Shown here piece by piece: positions 12,571 to 60,436 of a stretch of 64,000 nt of DNA. This DNA is from a bacterium. GTDB taxonomy: Bacteria > Patescibacteriota > Minisyncoccia > Phycocordibacterales > Phycocordibacteraceae. The position numbers were made by a program, and so were the translations under genes. The stretch is from NCBI GenBank assembly GCA_037200965.1, contig JBBCGK010000001.1, forward strand, positions 544,001 to 608,000, written 5' to 3'. The notes under the pieces are model-generated. The model was given only the letters and a program-made list of their open reading frames with translations. It did not search any database and had not been told where the DNA came from. Position 1 is the first letter of the stretch; the number at the start of each line of letters is the position of its first letter.

Positions 12571-12949
12571 AGGACTTATTCACTAGGATAATGAAGTGTT
12601 GTCGACTACTTATTCAGTCTATTGGATAAGTAACTTTTGTCAACAGGGAAATCATAGAATATGGGCTCTTTTGTCGAATTTACTTTTTATCCACATAATC
12701 CACGGATTGGGGATAAATATAACTGAGAAAAGGTTCTTTGCTAAGTTGTGCTTTTTGGAACAACTTTTTAAGGACATCTGTCGAGGGGTCTTCAACTCTT
12801 TCGACGAACGGCGATACGACAAAAGAAAGGGGGGCGTCCACTCCTGGGACACCCCTTTCGTCGATCATTATACATGCGGCGGATGAGGCTTCAAAGAAAC
12901 CTCATCAGTCACATGTATATATCTCTTTTTTTATACTAGTATTCATACC

Positions 12950-16987: not shown

Positions 16988-18406
16988 TTACTCAACCCTT
17001 ATTAGCGGCGTTGCCCCGAAAGTAACCTTCTGTGGTATTCCGTCCTTTATATCGCTAAATGTAGCTATTTCCCCTCTCGAACTAAATCCGCTCCCTCCTT
17101 TTAATAGGAACTTACTTTCATCTATCGACTGAAGAATCGTTTTATTGCTACCAAATAGTGGAGAGCTTGTATTCATATCAAAAGAAACTAGCGTATCTTT
17201 TATCTTAACTACTACCTTGTCTTCTCCAGAATTCCGATAAATACCTTCGTATTTTATACCATCAACTTTATTTTCCGACGTGTAATCAGAATTATTTTCA
17301 GTAAGACTGTATATTGCTTGAAAAATGCTCTGGGCATATGCCCATACCGGAGCTTTTGAGGTATTTGCGAGCACAACAACACCAAGTTCATTCCCGTAAT
17401 CAATGGCAACCTTTGATACAAAACCTTTGAAGCCTCCGCCATGGCCATATACTTTTTTAGAACTAACGTCATACATTTCAATCCCTAAACAGTATTTATC
17501 CGTACTCCTGGTATAGAAATCAGGCTCTGTAACCATACTTTGTTTAGATTCATTCTTTAAAAGAATCTCTGGTGCCTTAAACGGGAAGGTGGCTATATAT
17601 CTTGCAAGATCAATAGCATTTGAAATAAAGCCAGTCGCTGGCGCATAGGCATTAGCAGAGTAATGCCCGTACTTTTCCCTTTCCTGACCTGGTATTTCTC
17701 GTCCAAGGCCATTAGCAAGACCTCCTATATCTTTTTTATAATCAGTGAAGGTTGAGACCATGTCTAGCCTATCTAAGATATTTGCTTGAATATATTCCTC
17801 ATAAGACAGGCCGCTTACAGCAGCAATAAGTTCGCCTAAAACCGCGAAGCCGTAATTGGAGTATTTGAACTGAGAAGATGGTTTAAAAACCAAAGCTTCG
17901 TCTAAAAGAAGCTGAAGCGTCGTGGGGAATTCACCTGTAAACCAATGGGGTGTAGTACCTTCGCTCCAAATACCAGACGTGTGAGACAGTAATTCGTTAA
18001 TTGTAATATCTTCTAATTTGCCGTTTTCATTCTCTCCTTTGAACCATGGGAGATACTTTGAGACTGAATCTGTGAGTTTGATCTTTTCTTCTTCTACGAG
18101 TTGAAAAACTGCAACCGATGTAAACATCTTTGAAACAGAACCAATGTGATATAGGGTGTTTTCACTAACTTCAATCTTTTTTTCTAGGTCAGCATATCCA
18201 AAACCCTTCTTATACAAAACTTCTCCTTTATAAATAATTGCAATTGAAACACCAAGCACTTTATCGTATTGCAGTCTTAAAGGAAGCCATACCTCCAATA
18301 GATGCGCGACTTCTTTGATTGCTGATTTAATGTCGATCTCCACAACTATAATTGTAGTACAAAAAATGAAGTACCACGAGCAGTACGATTGTTCTGCGCC
18401 TCTCAA
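16988..18406 (-). CDS. Beta-lactamase-family serine hydrolase (class C beta-lactamase / PBP4-like / esterase fold); probable true start near 18343 (GTG)
   Basis: S-x-x-K active-site motif SVSKMF after the YHIGS block; YxN-like and later motifs of the family; about 450 aa; markedly low GC; the listed 5' extension uses a TTG and overlaps repeat copy B. Confidence 0.7.
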   Translation of the reverse strand: MRGAEQSYCSWYFIFCTTIIVVEIDIKSAIKEVAHLLEVWLPLRLQYDKVLGVSIAIIYKGEVLYKKGFGYADLEKKIEVSENTLYHIGSVSKMFTSVAVFQLVEEEKIKLTDSVSKYLPWFKGENENGKLEDITINELLSHTSGIWSEGTTPHWFTGEFPTTLQLLLDEALVFKPSSQFKYSNYGFAVLGELIAAVSGLSYEEYIQANILDRLDMVSTFTDYKKDIGGLANGLGREIPGQEREKYGHYSANAYAPATGFISNAIDLARYIATFPFKAPEILLKNESKQSMVTEPDFYTRSTDKYCLGIEMYDVSSKKVYGHGGGFKGFVSKVAIDYGNELGVVVLANTSKAPVWAYAQSIFQAIYSLTENNSDYTSENKVDGIKYEGIYRNSGEDKVVVKIKDTLVSFDMNTSSPLFGSNKTILQSIDESKFLLKGGSGFSSRGEIATFSDIKDGIPQKVTFGATPLIRVE

Positions 18407-18460
18407 GCGCGAAACCCTGGCACGAGTTGGCTGGCCGCCTCGAGTTCGAACCGTATAGAG
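18398..18460. repeat. GC-rich extragenic repeat family, copy B
   Basis: CAAGCGCGAAACCCTGGCACGAGTTGGCTGGCCGCCTCGAGTTCGAACC; about 85% identical to copy C. Confidence 0.5.
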
Positions 18461-18528
18461 ACAAGTCCGGGTTAGTACGTTTGATGAGTTTCGAGAATAT
18501 AAAACGATGCGTCTCGTGCGGCGAGGAC

Positions 18529-18903
18529 TTAGTTACCAAATACTACTTCTACATTATTTCCATCTGGATCTAGTACAAATGCTCCGTAGTAGTTTTCGTG
18601 ATATTCAGACCTAATACCTGGTGTTCCGTTATCTCTTCCTCCCGCATCAAGAGCTAATTTATGGAACTCATCCACCTCCTGTCTTGATTGAGCTTTCCAA
18701 GCGATGTGTGCTGGACCACTTATGGGTGCTTCACCGGCAAAGAACGTATTTGTCTTACCATCCTTTCCGAAGCCAATAACACGAACATGATCTTCATATG
18801 TTTGATCAAAGTTCAGTGAATATCCAAGGGGAGAAAGCGCAGCAGAATAGAATCGAGCTGTAGCTGCAATGTCACTTACTTTAAAAGTTATATGGTCGAG
18901 CAT
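18529..18903 (-). CDS. VOC-family protein (glyoxalase / bleomycin-resistance / dioxygenase fold)
   Basis: MLDHITFKVSDIAATARFYSAALSPLGY N-terminal beta-alpha-beta-beta-beta module and second module ending YYGAFVLDPDGNNVEVV; low GC. Confidence 0.65.
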   Translation of the reverse strand: MLDHITFKVSDIAATARFYSAALSPLGYSLNFDQTYEDHVRVIGFGKDGKTNTFFAGEAPISGPAHIAWKAQSRQEVDEFHKLALDAGGRDNGTPGIRSEYHENYYGAFVLDPDGNNVEVVFGN

Positions 18904-18915
18904 ATATGAATTATA

Positions 18916-19566
18916 TCAGCGCGGTTCTTCTTCGGTTGCTGTAGGCTCATCTTGTACAGACGCCTGTTTAGCTGCAGGAAGTGCTCGGGCTCGACGGAAT
19001 TTATAAAATCCCTCCAGTGCTGAAATGACTGCATCGATTACTTCGTTTGCATCCTCTTTGGTTACTGGCGCCGCTAAATCATCTGGGTGCATAACGTCAT
19101 TACGGCCGAGTCGAGCAACTGTGCTATCTGCAAATTGATCTGCATCGATCGCATCTCCATTCTTTAGCAACTCCAATCTCTTTTTTAGGCTCTTTCCCGC
19201 ATCTGAAGGTGACTTTAAGAATGCATTTACAAGTGCATCAAGCATAATTCCCGCTAAGGCAACTGAACTTCTGTAATTGCCATTATTGAACTCGACATAC
19301 ATTTCACCGCAGATCTCGCGGTAATTCTCTGGGAGCCAAGATGGTACTTGATGAGTTGAAATTACTGGATAAACGAATTTTACTCTGTTTTTAAATCCTG
19401 GCTCATGTTCGACGACAAAAGCATGCCCTCCCGGACATTCAACTACGCAGACGGTTTGTCCTTCACGGAACTGGTGTTGCCAAACTTCTGCAAAATAGGA
19501 GTGCAGCCCACACCTAGGACAATTGCCACTCCATCTATTTCCGTCTGTCCATGTCATTTGAATCAT
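18916..19566 (-). CDS. Zn-ribbon protein with DUF4145-like C-terminal domain
   Basis: N-terminal CPRC...CVVECPGGH four-Cys/His cluster; C-terminal ALAGIMLDALVNAFLK...ARLGRNDVMHPDD resembles the DUF4145 helical core; ATG preceded by a TATAAT-like box (leaderless-like); low GC. Confidence 0.45.
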   Translation of the reverse strand: MIQMTWTDGNRWSGNCPRCGLHSYFAEVWQHQFREGQTVCVVECPGGHAFVVEHEPGFKNRVKFVYPVISTHQVPSWLPENYREICGEMYVEFNNGNYRSSVALAGIMLDALVNAFLKSPSDAGKSLKKRLELLKNGDAIDADQFADSTVARLGRNDVMHPDDLAAPVTKEDANEVIDAVISALEGFYKFRRARALPAAKQASVQDEPTATEEEPR

Positions 19567-19931: not shown

Positions 19932-21032
19932 CTACTGATTCATCGGCATCACAAGATACAGGAACGACGCATCGCCGACACCCTTTATAACGAGCGGCCT
20001 TCCGACTCCCCCGGCAGAAAGCGTGACACTCTCCGCGCCTGAAAGCGCCACCGCAGCCTGAAGATAACGATGGTTGAAGGAAAGCTCGATATTCTCTCCT
20101 GTAAGACTCCCAGAAATGGTCTCGGAAGATTCTCCGACATCCGCATTCCTGGCCTGGAGCGAAATCTGCTTCTTCTCCTTATCAAACGCCATACGCACCT
20201 TCTGGAACGAGTCGGAGAAGATCGTGGTGCGCTTGAGCGCGGCATCAAGATCCCTCCGGAGCACGGTCGCTTCCGCCGAAAACGTCTTCGGGATGATCTG
20301 GCGATAGTCGGGATAGTTTCCGCTCACAAGCCTCGTGGTCACGAGACTCCCGCCCCACCCGATGGCGCACTGGTGCTCGTCGATCGAGAGCGTCACCGCC
20401 TCGTCCGGAAGCGTCTGTACGATATCCAGAGCATTCTTTGCGGGGATAAGGAGCGAGAATGAGGGGACGGAGCCTGGAAGCGAGGTGTGCTTCTCGGCAA
20501 GACGGAAGGAGTCCGTAGCGGCGGTAACGAGCGACCCTCCCTCGCTTGCGACAAGCACGCTCGCGAGCTCCGGGCGTATGGTCGAAGTGGAGGCGCAGGA
20601 AACGACCGAGTTGAGCGCTGTGCGAAGGAGGGTGCCCGGAATCTGGAACGTGCTCTTTGGGGACTCGGGAAACGGTATCGTCGGGAAATCCTCGTACGGC
20701 ACGGTCTTAAGGACGCCGCGGGACGTGCCGGAAGAAAGCACGACGGTATCCCCGGTCCGCTCGAGCGTCACGGACCCGTTCCCCTGAAGCGCACTCGCGA
20801 CTTGCTGGAGGAGGTTCGCGGGGAGCGCGACCACGCCCGGAGTCTTTATCTCCCCGTCCGCCTTGAGATCGACGCCGACTTCGAGATTTGTGGCACGGAA
20901 TTTGATGCCGTCATCCCCCGCAACAATCAGGATCGAAGAGAGCGCGGGAAGCGTCGCGGAGCCCCGCTGTGCGAATCGCGCCGCCGTATGCACTACTTCC
21001 GCGAGTCCTTTCTTTTCTAAAATAATAAGCAT
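19932..21032 (-). CDS. dnaN: DNA polymerase III beta sliding clamp
   Basis: 366 aa, three-domain beta-clamp pattern; N-terminus MLIILEKKGLAEVVHTAARFA...LSSILIVAGDDGIKFRATNLEVG; immediately downstream of dnaA. Confidence 0.9.
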   Translation of the reverse strand: MLIILEKKGLAEVVHTAARFAQRGSATLPALSSILIVAGDDGIKFRATNLEVGVDLKADGEIKTPGVVALPANLLQQVASALQGNGSVTLERTGDTVVLSSGTSRGVLKTVPYEDFPTIPFPESPKSTFQIPGTLLRTALNSVVSCASTSTIRPELASVLVASEGGSLVTAATDSFRLAEKHTSLPGSVPSFSLLIPAKNALDIVQTLPDEAVTLSIDEHQCAIGWGGSLVTTRLVSGNYPDYRQIIPKTFSAEATVLRRDLDAALKRTTIFSDSFQKVRMAFDKEKKQISLQARNADVGESSETISGSLTGENIELSFNHRYLQAAVALSGAESVTLSAGGVGRPLVIKGVGDASFLYLVMPMNQ

Positions 21033-21247: not shown

Positions 21248-22597
21248 TTATACCAACATGGTACGGATGTCCTGGATCTCCTTCGCGAGGTCGCTGTTGT
21301 CGATGATTTCACGCTTCACCTTCTCGCAGGAGTGGATGACGGTGGTATGGTCGCGCCCCCCGAGCTTCGAGCCGATGGTCGGATACGAGATGCTGAAGTC
21401 CTCGCGAAGGAGGTACATGATCACCTGCCGCGGCCGCACCACTTCCCTCCTGCGGGTCTTCTCATAGATGCTTTCCTCGCCGATGCCGTAGAATTCGGCG
21501 ACCTTCGAGACGATATGCTTCACCGAGACCGTCTTTGACGGTCTCGCGAAGGACCGGAGCGACTGCCGTATCTCGGCGATGTCCGGCGGCACCCCTTTCA
21601 CCTGCGTGTGGCAGACGACGCTGTTCACGACTCCTTCGAGCTCCCTGATAGACCCCGGGACCGAGAGCGCGATATACTCCGCGACCTCGTCCGCGAGCGT
21701 AACCCCGTGGGACGCGGCCTTGCGCCGGATGATCGCAACCCTCGACTCGGTGTCGGGTTCCCCGATATCGACCGCCATGCCGCTTGAGAAGCGGCTCCTG
21801 AGCCGCTCCGCGATGTCGGGGATAGCCGCGGGAGCGCGGTCCGAGGAGAAGATGATCTGCTTGTTGTTGTCGTGGAGGGTATTGAAGAGGTGGAAGAGTT
21901 CCTCCTGATATTTTTCCTTCTTCGCAAGGAACTGTACGTCGTCCATGATGAGGAGATCGTACTGGCGGTACTTGTCCTTGAAACGGTTCGGATTGCCCGC
22001 CTGGAGCGAGTCGCTGTATTCGACGCAGAACTTCTCCGAAGTGAGATAGAAGACCTTGCGGGTCGGATAGAGCTTCTTGAATTGGTTGCCGATCGACTGG
22101 ATGAGGTGGGTCTTCCCCCGCCCGGTGTCGCCATAGATGAAGAGCGGGTTGTACATGATCCCCGGGCGCTGTATCACCGCCTGCGCGGCGCTATAGGCAA
22201 GCTCGTTGAAGGAGCCGATGACGAACGAATCGAAGGTGTAGCGGGGGTTCAGGTTGTCGCTTTTGTTGATATAGAAGTCGTCAAGCGGCATCGAGACGGT
22301 CTGGCGGTCGGTTTTCTGCTCCCTGGCGGGCTTCCGGCGCTCGTCTTTCACGATCGCGTACTCGATATTGCGGAACTCGTAGGAGACGCCCCGGATGATC
22401 TTGAGGAGAAGGGCGTTGAAATGCTTCAGATACCAGTCGCGGAAGAAGGGGCTCGGGACGCCTACCTGCACGATCCCGTCCTCTATCTTCACGATATGGC
22501 TCGCGCCGAACCAGGTCTTGAAATTAGCCGGGGAAACGGAGAGCTCTACCTGCGTCAGCACGTGTTCCCAGAGCTCTCTCGGATCGGTACGGTTCAT
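21248..22597 (-). CDS. dnaA: Chromosomal replication initiator protein DnaA
   Basis: Walker A GDTGRGKTHL, Walker B LLIMDDVQF, sensor II, C-terminal DNA-binding HTH ...MYLLRE...SYPTIGSKLGGRDHTTVIHSCEKV. Confidence 0.95.
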   Translation of the reverse strand: MNRTDPRELWEHVLTQVELSVSPANFKTWFGASHIVKIEDGIVQVGVPSPFFRDWYLKHFNALLLKIIRGVSYEFRNIEYAIVKDERRKPAREQKTDRQTVSMPLDDFYINKSDNLNPRYTFDSFVIGSFNELAYSAAQAVIQRPGIMYNPLFIYGDTGRGKTHLIQSIGNQFKKLYPTRKVFYLTSEKFCVEYSDSLQAGNPNRFKDKYRQYDLLIMDDVQFLAKKEKYQEELFHLFNTLHDNNKQIIFSSDRAPAAIPDIAERLRSRFSSGMAVDIGEPDTESRVAIIRRKAASHGVTLADEVAEYIALSVPGSIRELEGVVNSVVCHTQVKGVPPDIAEIRQSLRSFARPSKTVSVKHIVSKVAEFYGIGEESIYEKTRRREVVRPRQVIMYLLREDFSISYPTIGSKLGGRDHTTVIHSCEKVKREIIDNSDLAKEIQDIRTMLV

Positions 22598-22706
22598 CGT
22601 CGCGTCATTATACGCGTCCGGTCCGGAATGGGTAGCGGGCGGTTTCGTTGCTTCTCCGGGGAGAAGCTGTTAATATCCTGTGTATAGTCGAATTCATACC
22701 TGACGC

Positions 22707-22865
22707 ATGTCCACCAAGCGAACCTATCAGCCGAAAAAGCGAAAGCGCGCCCGCGCGCACGGATACCGCGCCCGCGCGAAGACCCCGGGCGGCCGCCGCG
22801 TCCTCAAGCGCCGCATGCAGAAGGGCCGCAAGAAGCTCACGGTCTCGAAGCCGCGCCTCGTCTAG
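22707..22865 (+). CDS. rpmH: 50S ribosomal protein L34
   Basis: 52-aa [49 protein letters not shown], hand-translated; not in ORF track (below 60 aa); divergent from dnaA. Confidence 0.9.
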
Positions 22866-22874
22866 CCAAAAGCC

Positions 22875-23186
22875 ATGTTTCCGCGCGAAAAGCGCGTTTC
22901 CCGCGAGGATTTCCCGAAGCTTCTTGCTTCGCGCACGAGGCTTTTCTCCCCCCACTTCTCCGCTACCCTCTCCGAAACCTCCGCAGGGGTCGCGGCCGTG
23001 GTGTCGAAGAAGGTTGAGAAGACGTCGGTCGGAAGACACAGGCTAAAACGCCGGATTCTGGGCGTTTTAGCGTCGTATAACACGCTTCCGGCGCTCGGGA
23101 TCATCGTATTTGCGAAAGCCGGAGCCGCAGCCCTTAGCTCAAAAGAGCTTCGGGAAGAGCTCCGGGAGCTTTTCAGAAAAGTGTAG
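22875..23186 (+). CDS. rnpA: Ribonuclease P protein component
   Basis: Basic 103-aa protein with RnpA RNR-like motif GRHRLKRRI; immediately follows rpmH. Confidence 0.8.
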   Translation: MFPREKRVSREDFPKLLASRTRLFSPHFSATLSETSAGVAAVVSKKVEKTSVGRHRLKRRILGVLASYNTLPALGIIVFAKAGAAALSSKELREELRELFRKV

Positions 23187-23226
23187 CCCAAATAAAGCCG
23201 CAGACCTTATCTGCTACCATTACCCT

Positions 23227-23652
23227 ATGGCAACAATAAATCCCTGGATTAACTTCAACGGCAATGCCGAAGAAGCCTTTATGTTTTACAAATCAGTATT
23301 TGGCGGTGAGTTTACAAAGATTATCCGTTTGAAAGATCTTGCGAGTTCCGAGTTTCCCGTAGCGGACGCGGATGCGGAGAAAATCATGCTCATCGCCCTG
23401 CCGATTGGCAAGAACAGCGTATTGATGGCAAATGACGTACCCTCATTTATGGGTAGGGTGAGTGAAAATGAAAACCGAAGTAAAATCTCGGTCAGTACAG
23501 AGAGCAAGGAGGAAGCGGAGGCTATATTTGAAGGCCTCTCGGCAGGAGGGCAAGTCGAAGCGCCGCTCGGTGAGAGTGCGTGGGGAACCTATTTTGGCAT
23601 GTTCAGGGACAAATATGGCATCGAGTGGATAGTGGAGTTTCGATTTGAATAA
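23227..23652 (+). CDS. PhnB-like VOC-family protein; upstream extension to 23110 unlikely
   Basis: MATINPWINFNGNAEEAFMFYKSVFGG...KIMLIALPIGKNSVLMAND...EAPLGESAWGTYFGMFRDKYGIEWIVEF matches the PhnB/3-demethylubiquinone MTase-like VOC family; low GC. Confidence 0.6.
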   Translation: MATINPWINFNGNAEEAFMFYKSVFGGEFTKIIRLKDLASSEFPVADADAEKIMLIALPIGKNSVLMANDVPSFMGRVSENENRSKISVSTESKEEAEAIFEGLSAGGQVEAPLGESAWGTYFGMFRDKYGIEWIVEFRFE

Positions 23653-23697
23653 GTTTTTAATCAAAAGGCGCACAATCTTAACCCCGCTTAGACTCTC

Positions 23698-24630
23698 ATG
23701 CTTCCCAAGCTTACAGACGACCAAATTAAAAGTGTTTTTACTAACGTTGGCCTCGGCACTCCGAACACCATCAAAAAACTCAGTGTCGGCTTCTCAAACG
23801 ATGTGTATTCCGTAGACGATAAATACATTTTTAAGGCCATTAGGAACGAAGAAGACACGTCGTATCTAAAGAAGGAAATCCACCTTTGCAATTTGTTTAA
23901 GGAGAGGCTGCCCGCACCAGTAGTCGTGCATTCCGATACCGCTAAAGCCGCCCTTGATAGGGCGTATGTCATATACGAGAAGATTCAAGGAGATAACCTT
24001 TATATGCGGTGGCACGAATATTCCACCGAGGAGCGAAAGGCGATAGTCGAACAGATTTGCTCCTATCTTAAAGTCATTAACACTGAGCCTTTTAAAGATT
24101 TTACTGACGCTTTCAATATTGATACCAAAACTTCATGGCACGAACGGATAGCTACGAAAATACAAGAACATAAACTGAAAGCCCTTTCTGTTAATGCTAT
24201 TTCGTCTGAACAGGCGGAGCGAGTAGATGAGTATGTGAGGACTAGTTTAGTAGCACTCGATGAGTCCGTTATGGCACTGACTTACTTTGATGTTCACTTC
24301 GATAATTTTATCGTTCGAGACAAAAAGATAGTCGGAATGCTCGATTTTGAGAGGACGGATTTTTACTCGATAGATTTCGTATTGGATATCGTGCGACGCA
24401 TGGTCAACGAGCCGACTAAATACGCTTCCGAAGAAGCCGAACCGCTCATCAAGGCAGAGGATTATGCGAGTTTGATGGAACAGTACAAAGAGTATTATCC
24501 TCAACTCTTTGACTTTGAAAATCTTGAAGCGCGCCTCAAGCTATACTCAATAGACCACGACCTAGACCAACTCCATACGTGGCCTGAATCAGCGAGCCTT
24601 AAAGAGAGCTTGGCGAGGAATACTCAGTAG
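23698..24630 (+). CDS. Phosphotransferase (APH / choline-kinase) family protein
   Basis: Kinase-like fold markers: conserved Lys block IFKAI, Brenner motif YFDVHFDNFIV (H-x-D-x4-N), Asp-containing LDFE; 310 aa; low GC. Confidence 0.65.
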   Translation: MLPKLTDDQIKSVFTNVGLGTPNTIKKLSVGFSNDVYSVDDKYIFKAIRNEEDTSYLKKEIHLCNLFKERLPAPVVVHSDTAKAALDRAYVIYEKIQGDNLYMRWHEYSTEERKAIVEQICSYLKVINTEPFKDFTDAFNIDTKTSWHERIATKIQEHKLKALSVNAISSEQAERVDEYVRTSLVALDESVMALTYFDVHFDNFIVRDKKIVGMLDFERTDFYSIDFVLDIVRRMVNEPTKYASEEAEPLIKAEDYASLMEQYKEYYPQLFDFENLEARLKLYSIDHDLDQLHTWPESASLKESLARNTQ

Positions 24631-24773
24631 GCAAAATGTTCCGTTTCATCAGCCGCATCAAACACCCGTTGGCCCATCTGATTCATATACTCTCGGTTGA
24701 ATAGCAGGGGTGTATTTAGGTGACGCTCTGAGGGAGAACGGAATCGATAAATGAGGTATTATACGAAGCACGC

Positions 24774-25514
24774 ATGATCTCAAGCCTTTTCCACACGTTC
24801 TTCTACGACCCGATCTACAACCTCCTGGTATTTCTCGTATCCGTCGTCCCGCACGGGGACGTCGGTCTCGCGGTCATCGGCGTTACCATACTCGTCCGAC
24901 TCGTACTCCTTCCCTTCTCGCTTTCCGCCTCGAGAACCCAGCGCGCGATGAAGGTGCTTGAGCCGAAACTCAAGGAAATCAAGGAACAATACAAGGACGA
25001 CAAGCAGGAGCAGGCCGCGAAGACGATGGAACTTTATAAGACCGAGCGGGTAAACCCGTTCGCGAGCATCGTGACACTCCTTATACAAATGCCGGTCCTC
25101 TTCGCGCTCTATTTCGTTTTCCTCCACGAGCCGTTTCCGCAGCTAAATGCGCACCTTCTCTATACGGCGACTCCCGTTCCGGAAACGATCTCGCTTCTTT
25201 TTCTTGGGATCGTAAGCGTCCTGGGGCATAGCATCGTGCTCGCGGTTATCGCCGCCGCCGCCCAGTACTATCAGGTCATCCTTGCGGTGCCGAAGCCCAC
25301 TCCCAAGATAAAGGGTGAAGTTCTCAGTACCCAGGAGGAATTCACCCGGATGATGGGCCTCTATATGCGCGTCATCATTCCCGTGCTCATCGGCGTCGTG
25401 GCATACACGACCTCAGGCGCAGTCGCCCTCTATTTCATCACCGGCGCGGTCGTAAGTATTCTCCAGGAGCTGTATATAAAGCGCCAGTTCGACGCGAAGC
25501 CGGTCGCCCTATAA
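24774..25514 (+). CDS. yidC: Membrane protein insertase YidC (short Oxa1-type)
   Basis: 246 aa, 5 TM; conserved TM1 Arg block ILVRLVLLPFS, C1 loop KEIKEQYKDDKQEQ, TM2 PFASIVTLLIQMPV. Confidence 0.85.
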   Translation: MISSLFHTFFYDPIYNLLVFLVSVVPHGDVGLAVIGVTILVRLVLLPFSLSASRTQRAMKVLEPKLKEIKEQYKDDKQEQAAKTMELYKTERVNPFASIVTLLIQMPVLFALYFVFLHEPFPQLNAHLLYTATPVPETISLLFLGIVSVLGHSIVLAVIAAAAQYYQVILAVPKPTPKIKGEVLSTQEEFTRMMGLYMRVIIPVLIGVVAYTTSGAVALYFITGAVVSILQELYIKRQFDAKPVAL

Positions 25515-26774
25515 ATCGTACGCCCAGAGCGAGCCGTCGCGTTTGTTGAGGAACACGAGCACGTCCTTCCGGGGATCGACCGTAAGCGCGGTCGCGTCAA
25601 GCGGCCCGTCCGTCGCTCCCGAGAAATCGAGCGCCAGCTCGGCAAAGCGCCCGCCGACATCTATCTTCCAAATCCGGTCCGTGAACGAAACGGCCCCCTG
25701 ATACCAGTCGTCAGGATAGGTCGCGGTCGCAAGAGATCCCGGAACCGGCACGCCGCAATAGACGGCGCTTTCGTCAGACGTCCACGCGCATTTGTCCGCG
25801 ATCGTCGCGACCGGAAGCGCTATCAGCTCCCGGGTCCTGATGTTCAGAAGCGAAGTCTTCAGATTGCCCTGCTCGGTATAGCTTAAGAGCGCCCAGGTTC
25901 CCAAAGGACTCGGAAGCGCCACGAGTCCCGGCACGGGGCCGAACAGCCGGTTCATGGCGCCCGCGGTGTCGATGAGAAAGGCGTAGCCGCCCGAAAGTCC
26001 GGTCGCTTTCGTATACGCGACGAACTGGCCGCTTCCCGCAGGGCGTGCCGAAAGGCTTCCGAGGGGGGAAGAAAATGCGGTGCGCGAAGCGCTGCCGTCG
26101 GCCTTGGAGACGGTGCCGATGGAGCCGTTGCCGCCGCTTGAAAGCGAAAATACCGAAGATGAGCCGACGGTCGCGATACCCGCGATGTTTACGGGAAGGA
26201 AAAAGCCCTCCGTACCGTCAGCCGGGAGCGCGTAGGTGTCGATCTCCGGGTTTTCCGCGGTGCCGCCGGCGTAGCGAAGATATGCGAGCGACCCGTCGGG
26301 GAGCCACGTCGCTTCCTGAGTTCCCGGGATCGTTTTGTTGACCAGGCGCTTCGCCGCGCGCGCATGGAAGAGATAGGAGAAAAGATTTCCGCTCTCGCGA
26401 AGCGCGTAGCGGACTTCGGTATCGGGGACCGGGAGGCTCACGGTGCTTGTGCCGCTCGCTTCGCCCGCGGGAAGCGGCGCCGTACTGCTTGAAATAAACG
26501 CGACGGCGCCCGGCACCACCGGGCCTTTCGTTATCTCAATGAGCCGTTGCGTAACTACGGTTCCGGCGGCCGCGCCGCCCGTGTCCGGGTCTACGGTATC
26601 GCTTTCGCCTCCCGCAGCGTCCCCTGCGGGGTTTCCGAACGGGTTCGTGCCGGTATCGACGACGAGGGTCGGCGTTCCGGCGAAGATAAAGAAATATGCG
26701 GCGGCGCCGAGGCCTCCAAGGACGATGAGTATCGCGAGGATGATAAGTACGCGCCGCATAATCAGGAATCGCAC
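25509..26774 (-). CDS. N-terminally anchored extracytoplasmic protein, beta-propeller-like repeats (last gene of T4SS-like operon)
   Basis: TM anchor ILAILIVLGGLGAAAYFFIF then low-complexity linker and repeated G-S/T-x-hydrophobic blocks; 13-nt overlap with upstream gene. Confidence 0.4.
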   Translation of the reverse strand: MRFLIMRRVLIILAILIVLGGLGAAAYFFIFAGTPTLVVDTGTNPFGNPAGDAAGGESDTVDPDTGGAAAGTVVTQRLIEITKGPVVPGAVAFISSSTAPLPAGEASGTSTVSLPVPDTEVRYALRESGNLFSYLFHARAAKRLVNKTIPGTQEATWLPDGSLAYLRYAGGTAENPEIDTYALPADGTEGFFLPVNIAGIATVGSSSVFSLSSGGNGSIGTVSKADGSASRTAFSSPLGSLSARPAGSGQFVAYTKATGLSGGYAFLIDTAGAMNRLFGPVPGLVALPSPLGTWALLSYTEQGNLKTSLLNIRTRELIALPVATIADKCAWTSDESAVYCGVPVPGSLATATYPDDWYQGAVSFTDRIWKIDVGGRFAELALDFSGATDGPLDATALTVDPRKDVLVFLNKRDGSLWAYDL

Positions 26775-28039
26775 ACCTTGCCTGGTGCCGCGGACGCAGG
26801 GACGATCTCATCGACATCCGCGCTCGTGAAATCGCATTTGAGGTCGTACACGTTCGCCTTGTATCCAGGATAAGCGGAAACATTCTTAGCCGCGGACTGC
26901 TGCGCCTCCTGAAGACGTTTCGCGCAAAAGGATTTTGTGTCAACCGGGGTACGAGGAGATTCCTCGGTGGTGTCGGGTGTTTTTATCCAGTTGGCGCTCG
27001 CACCGAGGTGGGTTCCGCCGCCGTACACCCAGCAGCTCATTAAGGCCCTCGACTTATCGTTTGAAACGATTGCCTCATCGTCATACCAGTGCCACCAGGT
27101 GAAAACGTAGTATCCTGCCGCGCCGATTTTGACCGATACGGCGTTCGACGCCGACGAACTTACGCCGGAAGCATCTCGCGCTTTGACGGTAAAGGAATGG
27201 TCCGAACCGGCCGCGAGTTTGGAGACGGTGGCGGTCGTGCCTGCCACGGATTGCGCGAGGGTGCCATTGTCATACACGTCGTATGCAGCAGGAGCCGTGC
27301 CGCTCGGGGGGGCTTTCCAGGTAAGGGTCACGCTGGTAAGAGTCTGTGCCGTGACGGTGAGACTTTGCGGTGCCGTATCTCCCACCGTTCCGGTCCCGTC
27401 GCCGTCCCCTCCCGTATTGCCTCCTCCAACCTGGGTACCGTCCGGACTTCCCGTGCCTCCTCCTGTGTTTGAAGAATTGGTCGGCTGCAACTCATACGTA
27501 TTTATTTTAAGGCTCAGAATATCCGGATTTATAATGCTAAATACGAGAAACGGAGCAAGGACGAGCACGAGCCCGATGATCGCTCCGCCGATCTGATCCC
27601 GGCCTTCCGAGTGCGCCGTAATACTGTCGCCGCTCATCACCTTAAAACCGCCAAGCGTGATCATGAGGATGGCGAGAACCGCTGCGGCGCCGATGCAGAA
27701 CTTGTAGAGGCCGTTGAAGAATTCGGCAAGGTTATTCGGGTTTACGTCCGTAAGCCCCGGAACCGCCGCAAGCGGTACGAAAGAGCTTCCTTTTGCTGAA
27801 GATGGGGGTGTAGGTGTTGGGGAGGGAGCCGGAGTCTGTGTCGTTACCGGAACAGTACATTGATACGAATCAGCCGTTTTCCCGGGAAGACCCTTGATGA
27901 GAGCGCAGTTCTCCTCCTTGCCGCCGCATGCGCTGACGCAGGACTTGAGATCCGGATAGGTCGCATAGCTTTCCGCAGCGGCTACGTTCGGGGAAAAGAA
28001 TGCTATGACAATAAAAGCGAGGATAGGAAGATATTTCAT
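26762..28039 (-). CDS. Secreted protein with VirB2/TrbC-like double-TM hairpin fused to fibronectin-III-like domain
   Basis: Signal peptide; Cys-rich segment; hairpin FFNGLYKFCIGAAAVLAILMITLGGFKVMSG...IGGAIIGLVLVLAPFLVFSIINP (two hydrophobic helices with short polar loop); FN3-like SLTVTAQTLTSVTLTWKAP...YDVYDNG...HSFTVKARD. Confidence 0.4.
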   Translation of the reverse strand: MKYLPILAFIVIAFFSPNVAAAESYATYPDLKSCVSACGGKEENCALIKGLPGKTADSYQCTVPVTTQTPAPSPTPTPPSSAKGSSFVPLAAVPGLTDVNPNNLAEFFNGLYKFCIGAAAVLAILMITLGGFKVMSGDSITAHSEGRDQIGGAIIGLVLVLAPFLVFSIINPDILSLKINTYELQPTNSSNTGGGTGSPDGTQVGGGNTGGDGDGTGTVGDTAPQSLTVTAQTLTSVTLTWKAPPSGTAPAAYDVYDNGTLAQSVAGTTATVSKLAAGSDHSFTVKARDASGVSSSASNAVSVKIGAAGYYVFTWWHWYDDEAIVSNDKSRALMSCWVYGGGTHLGASANWIKTPDTTEESPRTPVDTKSFCAKRLQEAQQSAAKNVSAYPGYKANVYDLKCDFTSADVDEIVPASAAPGKVCDS

Positions 28040-29025
28040 AGTCCAAATATACCAGTACCCCCGCTCGTCTCCCCGAAGCTTATGCGCAGCGCACGCGTCG
28101 CCGTTTCAAACAATTGAGGGAGGGTCGCCGTGACGGAAACCGCCGCACTCCCCTTCCCGCCCGTGGAGCGCAGCGTGATAGCGGGGTTGCTGCCGCTTGC
28201 GCCGCTGTTGACGGTCCAGACGATCGCGGGCGTTCGTGCGAATCCATACGGCACCGCGACGAACGTCGCTTCGGCGCCCGGCATGGCGAACTCGTCGCCA
28301 AGCGCGCGGTCGTAGCGGATTCCAAGGAGCGGATCGCTCTCATACACCCGTACGGAAGGGTCTGATGGAGAGATTCGAAGAACGCTATCAGCCACCAATG
28401 ATTGGTCGGGACTCAAGACTGTTACCTCGATCGTTGCGTCGCGGTAGCGGACGGGTGCCGTCATAGAAACAACTGAGCGGCCGATGCCCGAAAGATCCGC
28501 GAGTTCCTGCCCGTTCAGTTTCCATTTATACACGAGCGTACCATCGGTGAATCTTTTCCCGCCGGTTGCTCGCAAGTCGGGAAGGGCGACGAGGCGTACT
28601 TGCCCTTGCGACGGAATACCGAAGCCTCCCGGGTAGAACGGATGGCTTGTTGCCGCAGGCTCTGCAATAAGCGCGACTTCGGCAGGACGCACGGTCTGGC
28701 TTGCGCTGTATGCTTGGCCGCCGATGGTTGCGATCGCTTTCACCACTGTCGCGCTTCCGGCCGCGCCAAGCGTGACCCGCGCCCGCCCGTTCGTCATTGG
28801 AATTTCTTTCCCGTCGGCAAGAATCGTTATGATTGCGGCCGCCAAGTCAATGGAGTTGCTCGACAGGCTTGCCGTTATCGTGTCATAGGGCCGTGGGTAG
28901 TCTGGTGAAATGGCGAGCGTAAGCGCCGGCCCCCCCGTTCCAAAGACGCCCTGCGCGAATACTGTCGCGGGCAACAGAATACCAAGGAGTGCATAAGCGA
29001 AGAAACGCATGTCTTCAGTATACAA
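28036..29025 (-). CDS. secreted hypothetical protein (T4SS-like operon)
   Basis: Signal peptide MRFFAYALLGILLPATVFAQG; no known motif; 4-nt overlaps on both sides. Confidence 0.4.
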   Translation of the reverse strand: MYTEDMRFFAYALLGILLPATVFAQGVFGTGGPALTLAISPDYPRPYDTITASLSSNSIDLAAAIITILADGKEIPMTNGRARVTLGAAGSATVVKAIATIGGQAYSASQTVRPAEVALIAEPAATSHPFYPGGFGIPSQGQVRLVALPDLRATGGKRFTDGTLVYKWKLNGQELADLSGIGRSVVSMTAPVRYRDATIEVTVLSPDQSLVADSVLRISPSDPSVRVYESDPLLGIRYDRALGDEFAMPGAEATFVAVPYGFARTPAIVWTVNSGASGSNPAITLRSTGGKGSAAVSVTATLPQLFETATRALRISFGETSGGTGIFGL

Positions 29026-29039
29026 GCTTTTCGGTATCT

Positions 29040-29531
29040 TCAGGCAGCCTCCTGTGCACTTTCCGTGGTCTCCTCGTTATCGTTTGCCGCCGCCGCTCGC
29101 ATCTCGGCAGCTCCTCGAGCGTATGCATCCGCGCGCCGCCGCTCGGCTTCCTTCGCCTTTATCTCCGCCGCATGGGCCGCATTATATGCGGCGTCCTCAG
29201 TTCGGCTGATGATGATAGTGCTTATAACCCCATAGGTAACGCCGGGCAAGGAATTAAGCAAAGGAGTCGCTTCAAGCACGGCGCTTCCGAGCAGGTTGAG
29301 CAGCTTCGCCGACTTGCCTTTCGTCATCTTTATGCCAAGCAGCGGAAACCACACCAGATAGAAAACGATACCGGCAAAGATCGCCACAAACCAGCTTCCG
29401 ATAAACGCGACGGCATTCCCCACGACCGGAATTGAGTTAAGAAAAAACAGAAAGAATTGAATCAGATCGAAAAGCGCCGCAAGCCCGCACATAAGCGCCG
29501 CCACGAACACTCCGACACGTTTTTGCTTCAT
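29040..29531 (-). CDS. small polytopic membrane protein (T4SS-like operon)
   Basis: 3-4 hydrophobic helices then charged Ala/Glu/Arg-rich tail; start overlaps VirB4 stop by 4 nt. Confidence 0.4.
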   Translation of the reverse strand: MKQKRVGVFVAALMCGLAALFDLIQFFLFFLNSIPVVGNAVAFIGSWFVAIFAGIVFYLVWFPLLGIKMTKGKSAKLLNLLGSAVLEATPLLNSLPGVTYGVISTIIISRTEDAAYNAAHAAEIKAKEAERRRADAYARGAAEMRAAAANDNEETTESAQEAA

Positions 29532-31348
29532 GACGCCCTCCCTCCCTCAAGCCGGTCCTTCTCGCGCTTGATCGAAAGGAGCTGCGAGGGGTCGGACGTG
29601 ATGATCTGATCTTCGGTATACGACGCGACGACCTTTATCGCGACGTGCTTGAGGCCCGCGAAGAAAAGCCCCTCCCCCACTCCCGACTCGAGAAGCAGGT
29701 ATTTCTCCTCGTCCGTGAGGTTGAAGGTTTCCTTGAGAACGTCGATCGAAGTCGGCGATTGCTTGAGGAGCAGCTGGATCGAGGAGTTGTTGAGGATAGG
29801 GCGGCCGTAGGGGGAACGGAGGAAGTCTTCCACGTCCTGCGTGATGGTCGCGACGCCGAGATAGTATTTGCGTCCGCGCTTGGCGAGGGAGTAGAGGAAG
29901 GAGGCCGTATCCTCGGACTTCATCATCCACCACGCCTCGTCGATCACGAGGAGGCGCTTCCGGAGTTCGTGCCGGATCGCGTTCCAGATGAAGTGCGTGA
30001 TGATATACATCGCGATCGGCTTGAGTTCGTCCTCCATGTCGCGGACCGAGAACACGATGAATTGCTTCTTGATGTCGACGTTCGTCGGCTGGTTGAGAAA
30101 CCCCGCCCACGTGCCGTGCGTGTACTTCGAAAGCCGCTGCACGAGGGATTCGCTGCCCTCAAGGCCCGACAGTACCTGCTCGAAGTCGGTGAGAAGCGGC
30201 GGCTCCTGGCCGGTGAAGTCGCTGTCGCCCGTGATGTCTTTGAGGGCGTACGTCTCCCCGATCGCCCGGTCGATAAGCGCGTCTTCCTCGGGCGTGAGGC
30301 CGCCGAGCATGATGCGGAAGAGACCGACGAGCGTAATCGTGTTCGAACGCAGGATATCCCGCGGGTTTTCGTCCTCCTTTACCGGCGGCAGGTCGAACGG
30401 ATTGATGTGATGCTCGCTCGAGAGCGAGATGTTGAACGACCTGCCGTCCGTCGCTTCCGCGAGCTGCTCGTATTCCCGCTCCGGGTCGATCACGATCACG
30501 TCGGTGTCGAACATGAGGGAACGAAGTATCTCGAGCTTGGTGGCATAGGATTTCCCCGAGCCCGACTTCGCGAAGACGACCGAGTTGTAATTCTCAAGCG
30601 AGAAACGGTCGAAAAGGATGAGCGAGGAATTGTGGCGGTTGATGCCGAAGAGTATGCCCCGGTCGCTCGTAAGGTCGAAGGAGACGAACGGGAAAAAACT
30701 CGAAAGCGGCGGCGTATCGAGCTTGGTATTGACGAGCAGCTCGTCGGTGCCAAGGGGAAGCGCGCTGCGGAACCCCTGCTCCTGCTGGAAGAGCGCGGGC
30801 TTGGTGTAGACCAATACCGAATTGAGCCGTCCGGTCACCTCGTTTTCGGTCTTATCAAGCTCGTCCTTCGAGTCGGCGTAGAGCGTCATGTAGAGGCCGA
30901 CTTCGAACAGCTTCTCCTCCGCCCGCTGCAGGCTGTCGCGGAGAGTCTCAAGGTTCTGGTATGACGTATCGAGGAGCGGATCGCGCACCAGTCCCTTGTC
31001 TTCGCGCTCCGATATCTGGCTTTGTATTTCCGCCACCTTTTTCTGGAACTGCCTGAGCGCCGCTTCGGTCTCGACCGGGTGTATGTAGAGCGCGATGTCG
31101 AAAGGTTTGTCGAGGTTCACGATCGGCGAAAGCCAGGAATCCGAAAGCGTGCTCGGATAGCTTATGGTATAGAACGATCGCGCGAATTTCTCGCCAAGCT
31201 CGAGTTCCCGCGCGCTGATCTTAAGCGCCGCGGGCGCGATGGTGTCGACGAGATCGAGCGCGCCCTTCCGGTAAATGTCTTTCGGCAGCACCGGGATCAC
31301 CTCCGGGGTCTGCTGCTGTTTTTTGTTTAAGAAGTCGAGAAGTGCCAT
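29528..31348 (-). CDS. VirB4/TrbE/CagE-family type IV secretion ATPase
   Basis: Walker A VVFAKSGSGKSYATK, Walker B LLVIDEAWWMM, ATITQDVEDF; N-terminal ISARELELGEKFARSFYTISYP block typical of Gram-positive-type VirB4; 606 aa. Confidence 0.8.
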   Translation of the reverse strand: MALLDFLNKKQQQTPEVIPVLPKDIYRKGALDLVDTIAPAALKISARELELGEKFARSFYTISYPSTLSDSWLSPIVNLDKPFDIALYIHPVETEAALRQFQKKVAEIQSQISEREDKGLVRDPLLDTSYQNLETLRDSLQRAEEKLFEVGLYMTLYADSKDELDKTENEVTGRLNSVLVYTKPALFQQEQGFRSALPLGTDELLVNTKLDTPPLSSFFPFVSFDLTSDRGILFGINRHNSSLILFDRFSLENYNSVVFAKSGSGKSYATKLEILRSLMFDTDVIVIDPEREYEQLAEATDGRSFNISLSSEHHINPFDLPPVKEDENPRDILRSNTITLVGLFRIMLGGLTPEEDALIDRAIGETYALKDITGDSDFTGQEPPLLTDFEQVLSGLEGSESLVQRLSKYTHGTWAGFLNQPTNVDIKKQFIVFSVRDMEDELKPIAMYIITHFIWNAIRHELRKRLLVIDEAWWMMKSEDTASFLYSLAKRGRKYYLGVATITQDVEDFLRSPYGRPILNNSSIQLLLKQSPTSIDVLKETFNLTDEEKYLLLESGVGEGLFFAGLKHVAIKVVASYTEDQIITSDPSQLLSIKREKDRLEGGRAS

Positions 31349-60128: not shown

Positions 60129-60184
60129 TGGTAAAACAGGATCTTGCCAAGATTCAGTCGGGGGTTCGATTCCCCCTGTCCGCA
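60114..60184 (+). tRNA. tRNA-Gly (anticodon GCC), CCA encoded (to 60187)
   Basis: Acceptor GCGGACA/TGTCCGC, anticodon stem GGATC/GATTC loop TTGCCAA, T-arm GGGGG-TTCGATT-CCCCC. Confidence 0.9.
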
Positions 60185-60197
60185 CCAGCTTCTTGAA

Positions 60198-60231
60198 GCG
60201 CAAAAACGGCCTTGAATGGCCGTTTTTGCGC
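60198..60231 (+). terminator. Intrinsic terminator after tRNA-Gly(GCC)
   Basis: GCGCAAAAACGGCC-TTGAAT-GGCCGTTTTTGCGC, 14-bp perfect stem plus T-tract. Confidence 0.6.
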
Positions 60232-60396
60232 TTCGGACAAAAGTGGATAAAGGTGTTAATACTGGGGATAAAGGACAATATTTGACGCTCTGTCCACCGC
60301 GATGGTCTGTAGAATTGCAAGCAAATAGGCCCTCATTCTTAAAGCCGTGAGGTCCTCTCGGAAAATGAAGAAAGGACATAAAGGTTTTAGGCGACC

Positions 60397-60434
60397 AAAA
60401 TGTAAAACACCCCTGACGGGGTGTTTTACATTTT
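60397..60434 (-). terminator. Intrinsic terminator downstream of tRNA-Pro (minus strand)
   Basis: AAAATGTAAAACACCCC-TGAC-GGGGTGTTTTACATTTT, 17-bp stem. Confidence 0.6.
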
Positions 60435-60436
60435 GG

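Follow-up and report, generated by a model that had tools for sequence, protein, structure and literature searches.

The DNA lying between rnpA and yidC in this genome is probably a horizontally acquired, lineage-specific insert of 1.59 kb, consisting of two accessory genes placed in an otherwise short rnpA-yidC spacer. The host is a Patescibacteria (Paceibacteria-like) with a genome of roughly 0.96 Mb and 56-58% GC, and the insert is located about 0.6 kb from dnaA. The two genes, coding for a PhnB-like VOC protein and an APH-family kinase, are best read as flexible-genome genes handling a xenobiotic or host-derived metabolite, and not as a demonstrated resistance cassette. The insertion is genuine, if rather unremarkable.

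Layout and base composition of the insert

The rnpA gene ends at 23186 and yidC starts at 24774, so that 1,587 bp (23187-24773, the full insert) lie between them; both inserted genes are on the + strand, co-directional with rpmH-rnpA-yidC, the conserved array of which rpmH is the first gene. The organization of the locus, with positions referring to the window (i.e., the whole 64-kb stretch of DNA that was analysed), is the following:

22707-22865, + strand: rpmH, ribosomal protein L34 (PF00468, E 7e-20; GC 68.6%, GC3 0.91), kept in relatives
22875-23186, + strand: rnpA, RNase P protein, 103 aa (PF00825, E 4.6e-13; GC 57.7%), left flank
23187-23226, no strand: left junction spacer, 40 bp, 47.5% GC, with a small hairpin (GCAGA-N5-TCTGC)
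23227-23652, + strand: PhnB-like VOC-fold protein, 141 aa, pI 4.6 (PF06983, PF00903; GC 47.2%, GC3 0.535)
23653-23697, no strand: VOC/APH intergenic spacer, 45 bp, 42% GC, no significant structure (fold z = +0.4)
23698-24630, + strand: APH-family (eukaryotic-like kinase fold) small-molecule kinase, 310 aa, pI 5.1 (PF01636; GC 43.3%, GC3 0.489)
24631-24773, no strand: right junction spacer, 143 bp, 46.9% GC, part of the inserted DNA
24774-25514, + strand: yidC, membrane protein insertase, 246 aa (PF02096, E 2.9e-40; GC 55.6%, GC3 0.74), right flank

An earlier, sequence-only reading of this DNA had already described two genes between rnpA and yidC, and all the elements of the locus were recovered at or very near the positions that it gave; of its interval for the insert, 23187-24700, the left end is correct, whereas on the right the insert extends as far as 24773, immediately before the yidC ATG. 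Neither flanking gene was disrupted: rnpA shows no truncation, since tblastn alignments to relatives span residues 1-100 or 1-103, and the alignments of yidC to relatives begin at residue 1.

The insert has a GC content of 44.7%, versus 55.9% for the whole 64-kb window. The low GC reported by the same reading was thus confirmed, even though its figure of about 42% was not, the value being 44.6% for 23187-24700 and 44.7% for the full insert. The flanking genes have a GC content of 55.6-68.6% and a GC3 of 0.67-0.91, as against a GC3 of 0.49-0.54 for the inserted genes. Equally AT-rich 1,587-nt windows represent 3.3% of the total and fall in two places only, that is, the insert itself and an island at about 16.2-19.7 kb. 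The comparison of codon adaptation with native genes led to the same picture: the codon-adaptation index is 0.51 in both inserted genes versus 0.68 +/- 0.07 in native genes (a reference set of 20), and overall the GC3 and codon usage of the inserted genes are about 2.6 SD away from those of native genes. The insert is therefore compositionally foreign to its host, with the atypical base composition and codon usage of an acquired genomic islet. However, its GC3 (0.49-0.54) is intermediate, and the VOC gene has a higher GC content than its closest homologues (whose GC3 is 0.37-0.39), so that the event may be old or the donor DNA may have been of moderate GC.

The rnpA-yidC site in relatives and the origin of the insert

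The comparative analysis of the site showed that the insert is lineage-specific at rnpA-yidC. All eight species representatives with a detectable rnpA exhibit the order dnaN-dnaA|rpmH-rnpA-yidC with an rnpA-yidC gap not exceeding about 50 bp, and in each of the 68 metagenome contigs spanning both rnpA and yidC (DnaA 72-80% identical) the gap measures 3-41 bp. Neither VOC nor APH genes were found near rnpA-yidC in the fetched loci of the 68 contigs, nor near the site in the eight representatives; as expected for an islet, both genes are thus absent from the syntenic site in the whole of this sample, whose nearest members are nevertheless distant (DnaA identity of at most 88%, the contig with 88% ending short of yidC). 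The idea that the insertion splits a conserved block is supported, given that the junction is otherwise invariant in the sampled relatives. The two observations that, according to the sequence-only reading, would have spoken against it, namely, relatives carrying the same genes at this position or a kinase lacking its catalytic residues, were not made.

The possibility that the arrangement is an assembly or binning chimera, in which a piece of DNA from a co-occurring low-GC organism ended up in the contig by mistake, is extremely improbable. It might be suggested by two short-read assemblies that break within the VOC gene; these breaks imply that the conserved 3' block of the VOC gene is a repeat in those metagenomes. 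In GCA_015655515.1 and in SRR10968228, however, one contig carries rnpA and, after it, the VOC N-terminus, while a second one has the VOC C-terminus with APH and yidC downstream, all at 99.9% identity, so that both halves keep a native flank together with part of the insert. Moreover, an independent 21-kb Logan contig (SRR28211700) spans rnpA-VOC-APH-yidC and is 100% identical over both insert junctions. Since the same junctions occur in three samples, the insert is not an assembly artefact.

If, on the other hand, the two genes were native, or their arrangement ancestral, with the low GC due to gene-specific constraints and the genes lost in relatives, then a precise loss restoring a 3-50 bp spacer each time would be required in 68 metagenomic relatives and eight species representatives, and an equally precise loss would be required at topA-relA, where a second APH-like gene of this genome is located. 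The deviation of GC3 and codon usage from the native genes (see above) is also difficult to reconcile with this idea. Two observations would fit it, that is, the somewhat higher AT content of VOC homologues of other genomes compared with their host loci, and the relationship between the two APH paralogues, which are sisters with saturated synonymous sites, suggesting a long residence somewhere. On balance, we consider this explanation, already disfavoured, as very unlikely.

The second APH-like copy is 62% identical to the first one and lies, with the same precision of insertion and likewise no signature of mobility, in the spacer of a few bases that separates topA from relA; its GC content (43.3%) is the same as that of the APH gene in the window, the surrounding genes having about 56-61% GC, and in the two closest relatives topA is followed by relA after 16 bp. 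The two copies are each other's closest relatives, with synonymous sites at saturation. This sisterhood could reflect an old duplication within the lineage, which is awkward to reconcile with both copies being still low in GC. We can also speculate that the two copies point to an unrecognised cassette-like or recombination-targeted mode of gene gain in CPR, or to a Patescibacteria-specific kinase with a new class of substrates (for example, for the modification of host-derived compounds) that matters for episymbiosis, although we regard this as a long shot. A second low-GC island near the origin (16988-19566), absent from relatives, is also present in the window; the claim that the insert was one of two independent resistance-like acquisitions near the origin is thus supported as regards the existence of this island, the resistance-like nature of the insert being unproven.

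As for the acquisition mechanism, the insert shares with small genomic islets an atypical GC content and codon usage, the absence from relatives, a cargo of accessory type and intact flanking core genes; it differs from them in lacking an integrase, a tRNA target, direct repeats or other hallmarks of mobility, and in its position within rpmH-rnpA-yidC, beside dnaA. Indeed, no integrase, transposase or tRNA was detected in the insert, whose only genes are VOC and APH, and no Rfam match was obtained within it. The search for flanking direct or inverted repeats over 22600-25000 retrieved chance-level matches only, the best being a 17-nt direct repeat (88%) at 23123 and 23196, for which we estimate about 0.2-1 chance occurrences. 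An integron cassette was discarded, there being no attC-like palindrome and the 3' spacers folding no better than shuffles as ssDNA (z = -0.6 and -1.0 in the window, -1.9 for the paralogue), and no conserved 5' or 3' flank motif marking a cassette boundary was seen among the APH homologues. A phage origin (neither protein had relatives on IMG/VR contigs, and PHROG matches were marginal), an anti-phage defence role (no PADLOC match) and a plasmid-borne resistance gene (a single plasmid match of APH, with 21.7% identity, among 72,556 plasmids) were also rejected; the VOC protein was at most 46% identical to the products of plasmid or chromid VOC genes. The uptake of DNA followed by recombination, either illegitimate or assisted by homology, would be the default guess for a mechanism that left no trace.

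The VOC protein and the kinase

The assignment of the first gene to the PhnB/VOC fold was borne out by the scores against PF06983 (38.2 bits, cutoff 24) and PF00903 (36.6 bits, cutoff 20.6), which place the protein in the VOC superfamily over the full domain. With PhnB-like/PF06983 proteins (1u6l; the PhnB entries 5kef and 3oms; YjdN) it shares a single-domain VOC (glyoxalase/bleomycin-resistance) fold of about 140 aa. It differs from them in belonging to a very tightly conserved clade and in falling below the equivalog cutoff of the YjdN VOC metalloprotein (NCBIfam NF007537; 40 versus 122 bits). Its closest solved relative is 1u6l, a 'hypothetical protein' (E 1.9e-19), and PhnB entries come next; these solved relatives carry no functional names, and the literature searches retrieved no functional characterization of PhnB-like VOC proteins. 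The best 120 database matches listed are 79-89% identical and, where named, belong mostly to Patescibacteria or Paceibacterota. A recent transfer of the VOC gene was rejected, in that it shares only 55-59% of its third codon positions with the closest available homologues in spite of an amino-acid identity of 85-88%. The 141-aa protein most likely has a small molecule as its ligand or substrate.

The second protein passes the gathering threshold of PF01636 (APH) with 55.3 bits (cutoff 23.2) over residues 24-222, and its structure model has a pLDDT of 96.3. The catalytic set K46, D198, N203 and D216 (the beta3 Lys, the catalytic Asp and Asn, and the metal-binding Asp, respectively) is invariant in 69 homologues, as are H200, F201, D202, F217 and E218, so the Lys and Asp residues on which the sequence-only reading had made its proposal depend are kept. 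The Brenner motif HFDNF (residues 200-204) and the DFE motif (216-218) on which that proposal was based are indeed present; the catalytic Asp, however, does not lie inside HFDNF, the alignment placing it at D198 (in YFD198VHFDN203), the counterpart of the catalytic Asp in APH(2'')-IVa. On these grounds, the 310-aa protein would be competent for catalysis, as an O-kinase of small molecules that depends on ATP or GTP and has the APH/eukaryotic-like-kinase fold.

The gathering score and the conserved catalytic residues relate this kinase to the family described by PF01636 (APH(3'), macrolide, homoserine, choline and fructosamine kinases); compared with the family at large, it belongs to a small and discrete subfamily and scores far below the cutoffs of all the curated NCBIfam subfamilies. 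The subfamily accounts for 573 of 1.84 billion representatives at E<=1e-3 (55 at E<=1e-30), and its members or their contigs, where named, are from Parcubacteria or an unclassified 'bacterium'. In addition to the catalytic core, the residues P239, K241, Y242, Y267, P268, F273, R279 and Y283 of the C-terminal lobe are family-invariant.

Ten homologue loci were inspected, six for APH and four for VOC (starting from three looked-up proteins in each case), and in none of them did the two genes lie side by side. The existence of a conserved VOC-APH operon was therefore rejected, and VOC and APH probably do not form an obligate functional pair. The APH homologues occur in an APH-methyltransferase-MFS-APH cluster or in toxin-antitoxin islands; the neighbours of the VOC homologues are assorted and non-conserved, one locus containing a second VOC gene and a beta-lactamase-family gene.

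Possible substrates, expression and significance

As regards the substrate of the kinase, the closest solved fold is that of APH(2''), with an overall fold similarity at 15-18% identity, while steroid, homoserine, fructosamine and choline kinases are only slightly less similar; for choline/ethanolamine kinases, to which the kinase had also been likened, neither a family-model match nor the position of best structural neighbour was obtained, so that membership of that family was not confirmed. With the APH(2'') enzymes (APH(2'')-IVa/Id, 3sgc and 4dbx; APH(2'')-IIIa, 3tdv) the protein shares the beta3 Lys, the (H/Y)xDxxxx(N/H) loop and the metal-binding Asp of DF(G/E). Nevertheless, at this level of identity the resemblance is one of overall fold only, and the alignment stops before the C-terminal substrate-binding helices, where the kinase family has its own invariant residues. 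In particular, the hhalign alignment with APH(2'')-IVa ends at query residue 236, beyond which the HMMER pairing is of low confidence, so that the C-terminal substrate lobe, where the acidic cluster binding aminoglycosides in APH(2'')-IVa (E235/E238/E239) is located, cannot be aligned. Since this lobe is family-specific, the substrate would be distinct from those of the characterized aminoglycoside kinases, or at any rate not to be identified with them.

One might argue for true aminoglycoside resistance, with the kinase acting as an APH(2'')- or APH(3')-like O-phosphotransferase and VOC as a second resistance factor, the insert being an origin-proximal resistance cassette. The closest curated models across the family are in fact APH(3') (67 of 69 members) and APH(2'') (30 of 69; weak, best E 2.9e-9); the kinase has a low pI (5.1), as is typical of aminoglycoside kinases; and its nearest non-self homologue lies in the APH-methyltransferase-MFS-APH cluster. 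AR-like genes with 20-30% similarity to bacterial resistance genes, aminoglycoside phosphotransferases among them, have also been reported across CPR genomes (PMC8651080), a survey-level report being all that the literature searches retrieved on the function of APH genes in CPR. Yet the kinase falls below every curated aminoglycoside-kinase threshold, scoring 34.2 bits with the APH(3') equivalog model NF033068 (cutoff 205) and 25 with that of APH(3')-I (cutoff 400), and gave no match to the curated APH(2'') models at E<=0.01. The low identity to any solved APH, the unalignable C-terminal lobe, whose family-invariant residues include the basic K241 and R279, and the presence of one weak relative only among the plasmids searched all argue against resistance. 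Because the curated thresholds are failed and the C-terminal region is family-specific, the 'resistance-like' label of the sequence-only reading is unsupported, and we consider a resistance enzyme unlikely.

Somewhat less unlikely, although still doubtful, is the idea of a kinase of metabolism or salvage (with a sugar, an amino alcohol, a homoserine-like compound, a vitamin or a host-derived metabolite as substrate) having nothing to do with antibiotics, which a reduced-genome episymbiont might have acquired to widen its scavenging. This would agree with the weak matches of 22 of the 69 family members to the homoserine kinase model and of four to the thiamine kinase model, with the highly conserved family-specific C-terminal lobe (P239, Y267, P268, F273, R279 and Y283 being invariant) and with the maintenance of two diverged copies in the genome. 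However, no pathway partners adjoin either copy, the neighbours being housekeeping genes, and the contexts of the homologues, rich in toxin-antitoxin genes or containing transporters and methyltransferases, are typical of flexible DNA of defence or detoxification type, and are not those of metabolic operons. Our preferred reading remains that of flexible-genome genes acting on a xenobiotic or host-derived metabolite.

These findings imply that the highly conserved, origin-adjacent rpmH-rnpA-yidC array of a streamlined CPR genome can accept foreign accessory genes, leaving its neighbours undisturbed. They also define a small branch of the APH superfamily with an intact catalytic core, a family-specific substrate lobe and two copies in one genome, and suggest caution in reading APH-fold and VOC-fold proteins of CPR genomes as antibiotic-resistance genes. 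The substrate of the kinase, if found, could tell what these episymbionts must neutralise or scavenge.

Lastly, concerning expression, the scans for sigma-70 promoters and terminators in the insert gave nothing decisive other than the lack of a predicted + strand terminator within 23187-24773; the left-spacer hairpin is weak (fold z = -2.2) and, not being followed by a T-run on the + strand, does not yield a predicted terminator on that strand. Given that the genes are co-directional and the spacers are of 40 and 45 bp, with no + strand terminator predicted in the insert, VOC and APH may be transcribed by read-through from the rpmH-rnpA promoter. The 143-bp right spacer contains a promoter-like TATTAT hexamer, ending 11 nt upstream of the yidC ATG, which may serve as a replacement promoter for yidC.

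Gene content, composition and synteny of the rnpA-yidC insert

The ORF listing and the Pfam scan of the origin region revealed the following organization (window positions):

19932-21032, minus strand: dnaN
21248-22597, minus strand: dnaA
22707-22865, plus strand: rpmH
22875-23186, plus strand: rnpA
23227-23652, plus strand: VOC protein, 141 aa (PF06983/PF00903)
23698-24630, plus strand: APH-family protein, 310 aa (PF01636), referred to as the kinase
24774-25514, plus strand: yidC

The gene content assigned to the space between rnpA and yidC by the sequence-only reading, that is, a VOC gene and an APH-family gene, was therefore correct. The insert proper covers 23187-24773, with spacers of 40 bp (rnpA-VOC), 45 bp (VOC-APH), and 143 bp (APH-yidC). 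It is an accessory islet of foreign composition; the kind is familiar, and the location is unusual, not unprecedented. Its GC content is 44.7% versus 55.9% for the window; the low GC claimed earlier thus holds relative to the window, but not the figure of about 42%, since the interval to which it referred measures 44.6%. Equally AT-rich windows of 1,587 nt represent only 3.3% of the total and are confined to two places, namely the insert itself and an island (~16.2-19.7 kb). The comparison with the flanking genes also revealed an atypical codon usage: GC3 is 0.535 in the VOC gene (GC 47.2%) and 0.489 in the APH gene (GC 43.3%), and 0.91 in rpmH, 0.67 in rnpA, 0.74 in yidC, and 0.85 in dnaA; the codon-adaptation index, referred to 20 native genes, is 0.51 for both inserted genes versus 0.68 +/- 0.07 for the native ones, about 2.6 SD lower. 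In the relatives' loci sharing the origin synteny (L007-L164), the per-locus GC ranges from 0.34 to 0.60 at only 72-80% DnaA identity; since base composition shifts so quickly in this clade, a donor is difficult to infer from GC alone. A greedy ORF survey also disclosed a lowered GC3 (0.42-0.52) in the ORFs at 12596-12886, 60125-61347, and 62903-63934, which may be additional small foreign patches.

The idea that the insert splits a conserved block is in agreement with the organization of the same region in the relatives. GTDB species representatives (labelled Nomurabacteria, Paceibacterota, Parcubacteria, and in some cases "Saccharibacteria") were scanned with YidC, and a metagenome search with DnaA yielded 80 contigs (DnaA identity 72-88%). 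The arrangement dnaN-dnaA/rpmH-rnpA-yidC and two genes downstream of yidC are kept in all the relatives found with YidC, and rnpA and yidC are uninterrupted both in the representatives with a detectable rnpA (spacing up to about 50 bp in 8/8) and in the metagenome contigs spanning both genes (gap of 3-41 bp in 68/68); in none of these metagenome loci did tblastn detect VOC or APH. Both rnpA and yidC are undamaged, since their alignments to the relatives run from the first through the last residue. The insertion is dated no finer than after the split from relatives whose DnaA is ~80% identical, because the closest contig (DnaA 88%) ends short of yidC.

The arrangement is not an assembly artefact. 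Both insert junctions are covered at 100% identity by a 21 kb Logan contig (SRR28211700). Two other, independent short-read assemblies, GCA_015655515.1 and SRR10968228 (Logan), are both broken within the VOC gene, each giving one piece with dnaA-rpmH-rnpA and the start of VOC (80-100 codons) and another one with the last 22 VOC codons, APH, and yidC, at 99.9% identity. The breaks fall in the most conserved (3') VOC block, at window positions ~23527-23581; two of the fetched loci (L002 and L003) begin at the identical base, 23582, and a third one (L167) is 98% identical to the window over 100 aa, its last residues being different. The breaks fit a VOC gene acting as a near-repeat among co-occurring populations. 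Together, these observations suggest that the two communities harbour several near-identical VOC alleles.

Directly 3' of yidC, a convergent cluster (25509-31348, minus strand) codes for proteins of 421 aa (no Pfam match) and 425 aa (fn3 domain) and for a P-loop ATPase of the TraG/DUF87 type (606 aa), and includes two more ORFs. Its first two genes, those of the 421-aa and 425-aa proteins, keep their position in the relatives, and the cluster may represent a secretion- or pilus-like module conserved beside the origin.

The kinase and the VOC protein

The VOC and APH-fold superfamilies are both very large and functionally heterogeneous. The kinase, which matches the APH family (PF01636), belongs to a small, discrete subfamily: a word-indexed search retrieved only 73 relatives, the best non-self one being a paralogue (62%) of the same genome, and an exhaustive phmmer search against 1.84 billion representatives gave 573 with an E-value of 1e-3 or lower, 55 of them with 1e-30 or lower. 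In a 69-sequence alignment, K46, D198, H200, F201, D202, N203, and D216-F217-E218 are invariant, as are P239, Y267, P268, F273, R279, and Y283 in the C-terminal part. HMMER and hhalign alike align YFD198VHFDN203 to HND197FSSDH of APH(2'')-IVa/Id (D197 being counted from the alignment), so that D198 is the predicted catalytic base; the earlier proposal of the Asp of HFDNF has to be abandoned, and the DFE Asp that it named (D216) is the metal ligand.

The AlphaFold2 model on the alignment, which is very confident (pLDDT 96.3, pTM 0.92), has APH(2'')-IVa/Id, Ib, and IIa as Foldseek neighbours (TM ~0.70, 15-18% identity), and since the scores fall smoothly, this ranking singles out no one substrate class. 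The APH(2'')-IVa profile alignment (probability 94.7%) ends at kinase residue 236, short of the substrate-binding helices. The weak best model matches across the kinase family are to APH(3'), APH(2''), and homoserine kinase. Hence the kinase is predicted to be a catalytically competent small-molecule kinase, with a substrate not assignable to one class. That it might confer aminoglycoside resistance, as implied by the earlier term "resistance-like", is possible, yet unlikely and unsupported: with the curated APH(3') model the score is 34 bits, the cutoff being 205, the curated APH(2'') models give no match, and 72,556 plasmids yielded a single, weak relative. Surveys of CPR genomes have reported many divergent "AR-like" genes, with 20-30% similarity for aminoglycoside classes (PMC8651080), and the present case shows why such labels need caution.

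The closest kinase homologue other than self and paralogue (P0003, 59%) lies within a tight co-directional cluster (L075, 55-3807) coding for an APH-like kinase, a SAM methyltransferase, an MFS transporter, and a second distant APH-family kinase (25% identity), a layout that suggests small-molecule modification and export.

The VOC protein passes PF06983 and PF00903 and fails the YjdN equivalog model (40 bits versus a cutoff of 122). Its solved relatives, 1u6l (E 2e-19) and then 5kef, 3l20, and 3oms, were deposited under the names "hypothetical protein" or "PhnB protein", and no functional study of PhnB-like VOC proteins was found in the literature searched. The best 120 listed database matches are 79-89% identical, the named ones being mostly Patescibacteria. 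However, with the three homologues whose DNA was readable, identity at third codon positions is only 55-59%; because of this divergence, the similarity of the proteins reflects strong purifying selection and not a very recent transfer. The VOC GC3 exceeds that of these homologues (0.37-0.39) but stays below the host level, which suggests partial amelioration or a moderate-GC donor. The identity within the VOC clade (79-89%, best 120 listed clusters; window 23227-23652, L081, L082, L084) exceeds that of DnaA between this genome and the relatives examined (<=88%), although the third codon positions are almost randomised. A clade so strongly conserved, uncharacterised, and mostly patescibacterial where named may deserve its own study.

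The two genes probably do not represent an obligate unit. At the homologue loci examined elsewhere, VOC and APH were never adjacent: APH homologues occur in an APH-methyltransferase-MFS-APH cluster or adjoin toxin-antitoxin genes, and VOC homologues have varied, non-conserved contexts, one of which includes another VOC gene and a gene of the beta-lactamase family.

A kinase paralogue and a second island

Two further loci are relevant in this context:

L004 8001-8945 (record JBBCBH010010897.1, ~483-484 kb): P0002, the APH-like kinase paralogue (62%), between topA and relA/spoT
16988-19566 (window), minus strand: low-GC island between a PBP gene and dnaN, more extreme than the insert, with genes for a 472-aa beta-lactamase-family protein (PF00144), a 124-aa VOC/glyoxalase-like protein, and a 216-aa DUF4145 protein

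P0002, on the same 960,259-bp contig as the window (assembly GCA_037975565.1) and about 400 kb from the insert, begins 2 nt past the topA stop and has a GC of 43.3% and a GC3 of 0.47, its neighbours' GC3 being 0.72-0.78. In the two nearest relatives retrieved (RelA identity 83% and 79%), relA follows topA after 16 bp, without the kinase. The window kinase and P0002 are sisters in a neighbour-joining tree; since their synonymous sites are saturated (third-position identity 0.42), their divergence is old and took place either in donors or within the present lineage. Two scar-less, gene-precise insertions of the same small kinase family into tight housekeeping pairs could raise the importance of the case.

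The island at 16988-19566 (GC 0.39-0.46, GC3 0.26-0.36) is probably the first acquisition to which the sequence-only reading alluded. None of its proteins was found by tblastn in about 150 relatives' loci, the flanking PBP being present in 68. It seems to be a separate event, given a composition unlike that of the rnpA-yidC insert.

Mobility and expression

Neither an integrase, a tRNA, a meaningful flanking repeat, an attC-like structure, nor an Rfam element was found at the insert, and no viral-contig relative or defence-system match was found for its proteins. Since the inserted genes are co-directional with the rpmH-rnpA-yidC array and no plus-strand terminator is predicted within the insert, the most economical model is that they would be transcribed by read-through from the rpmH-rnpA promoter. 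The 143-bp right spacer contains a TATTAT hexamer (24757-24762) whose end is 11 nt from the yidC ATG and which could act as a substitute promoter for yidC.

Several genes without a recognisable Shine-Dalgarno sequence have a -10-like hexamer (TATTAT, TATCAT, TATACA) ending 7-11 nt before the ATG (window 24757-24762; L004 ~8985-8990; L076 and L078, directly upstream of the APH start), a possible sign that transcripts of these Patescibacteria have very short leaders or none.
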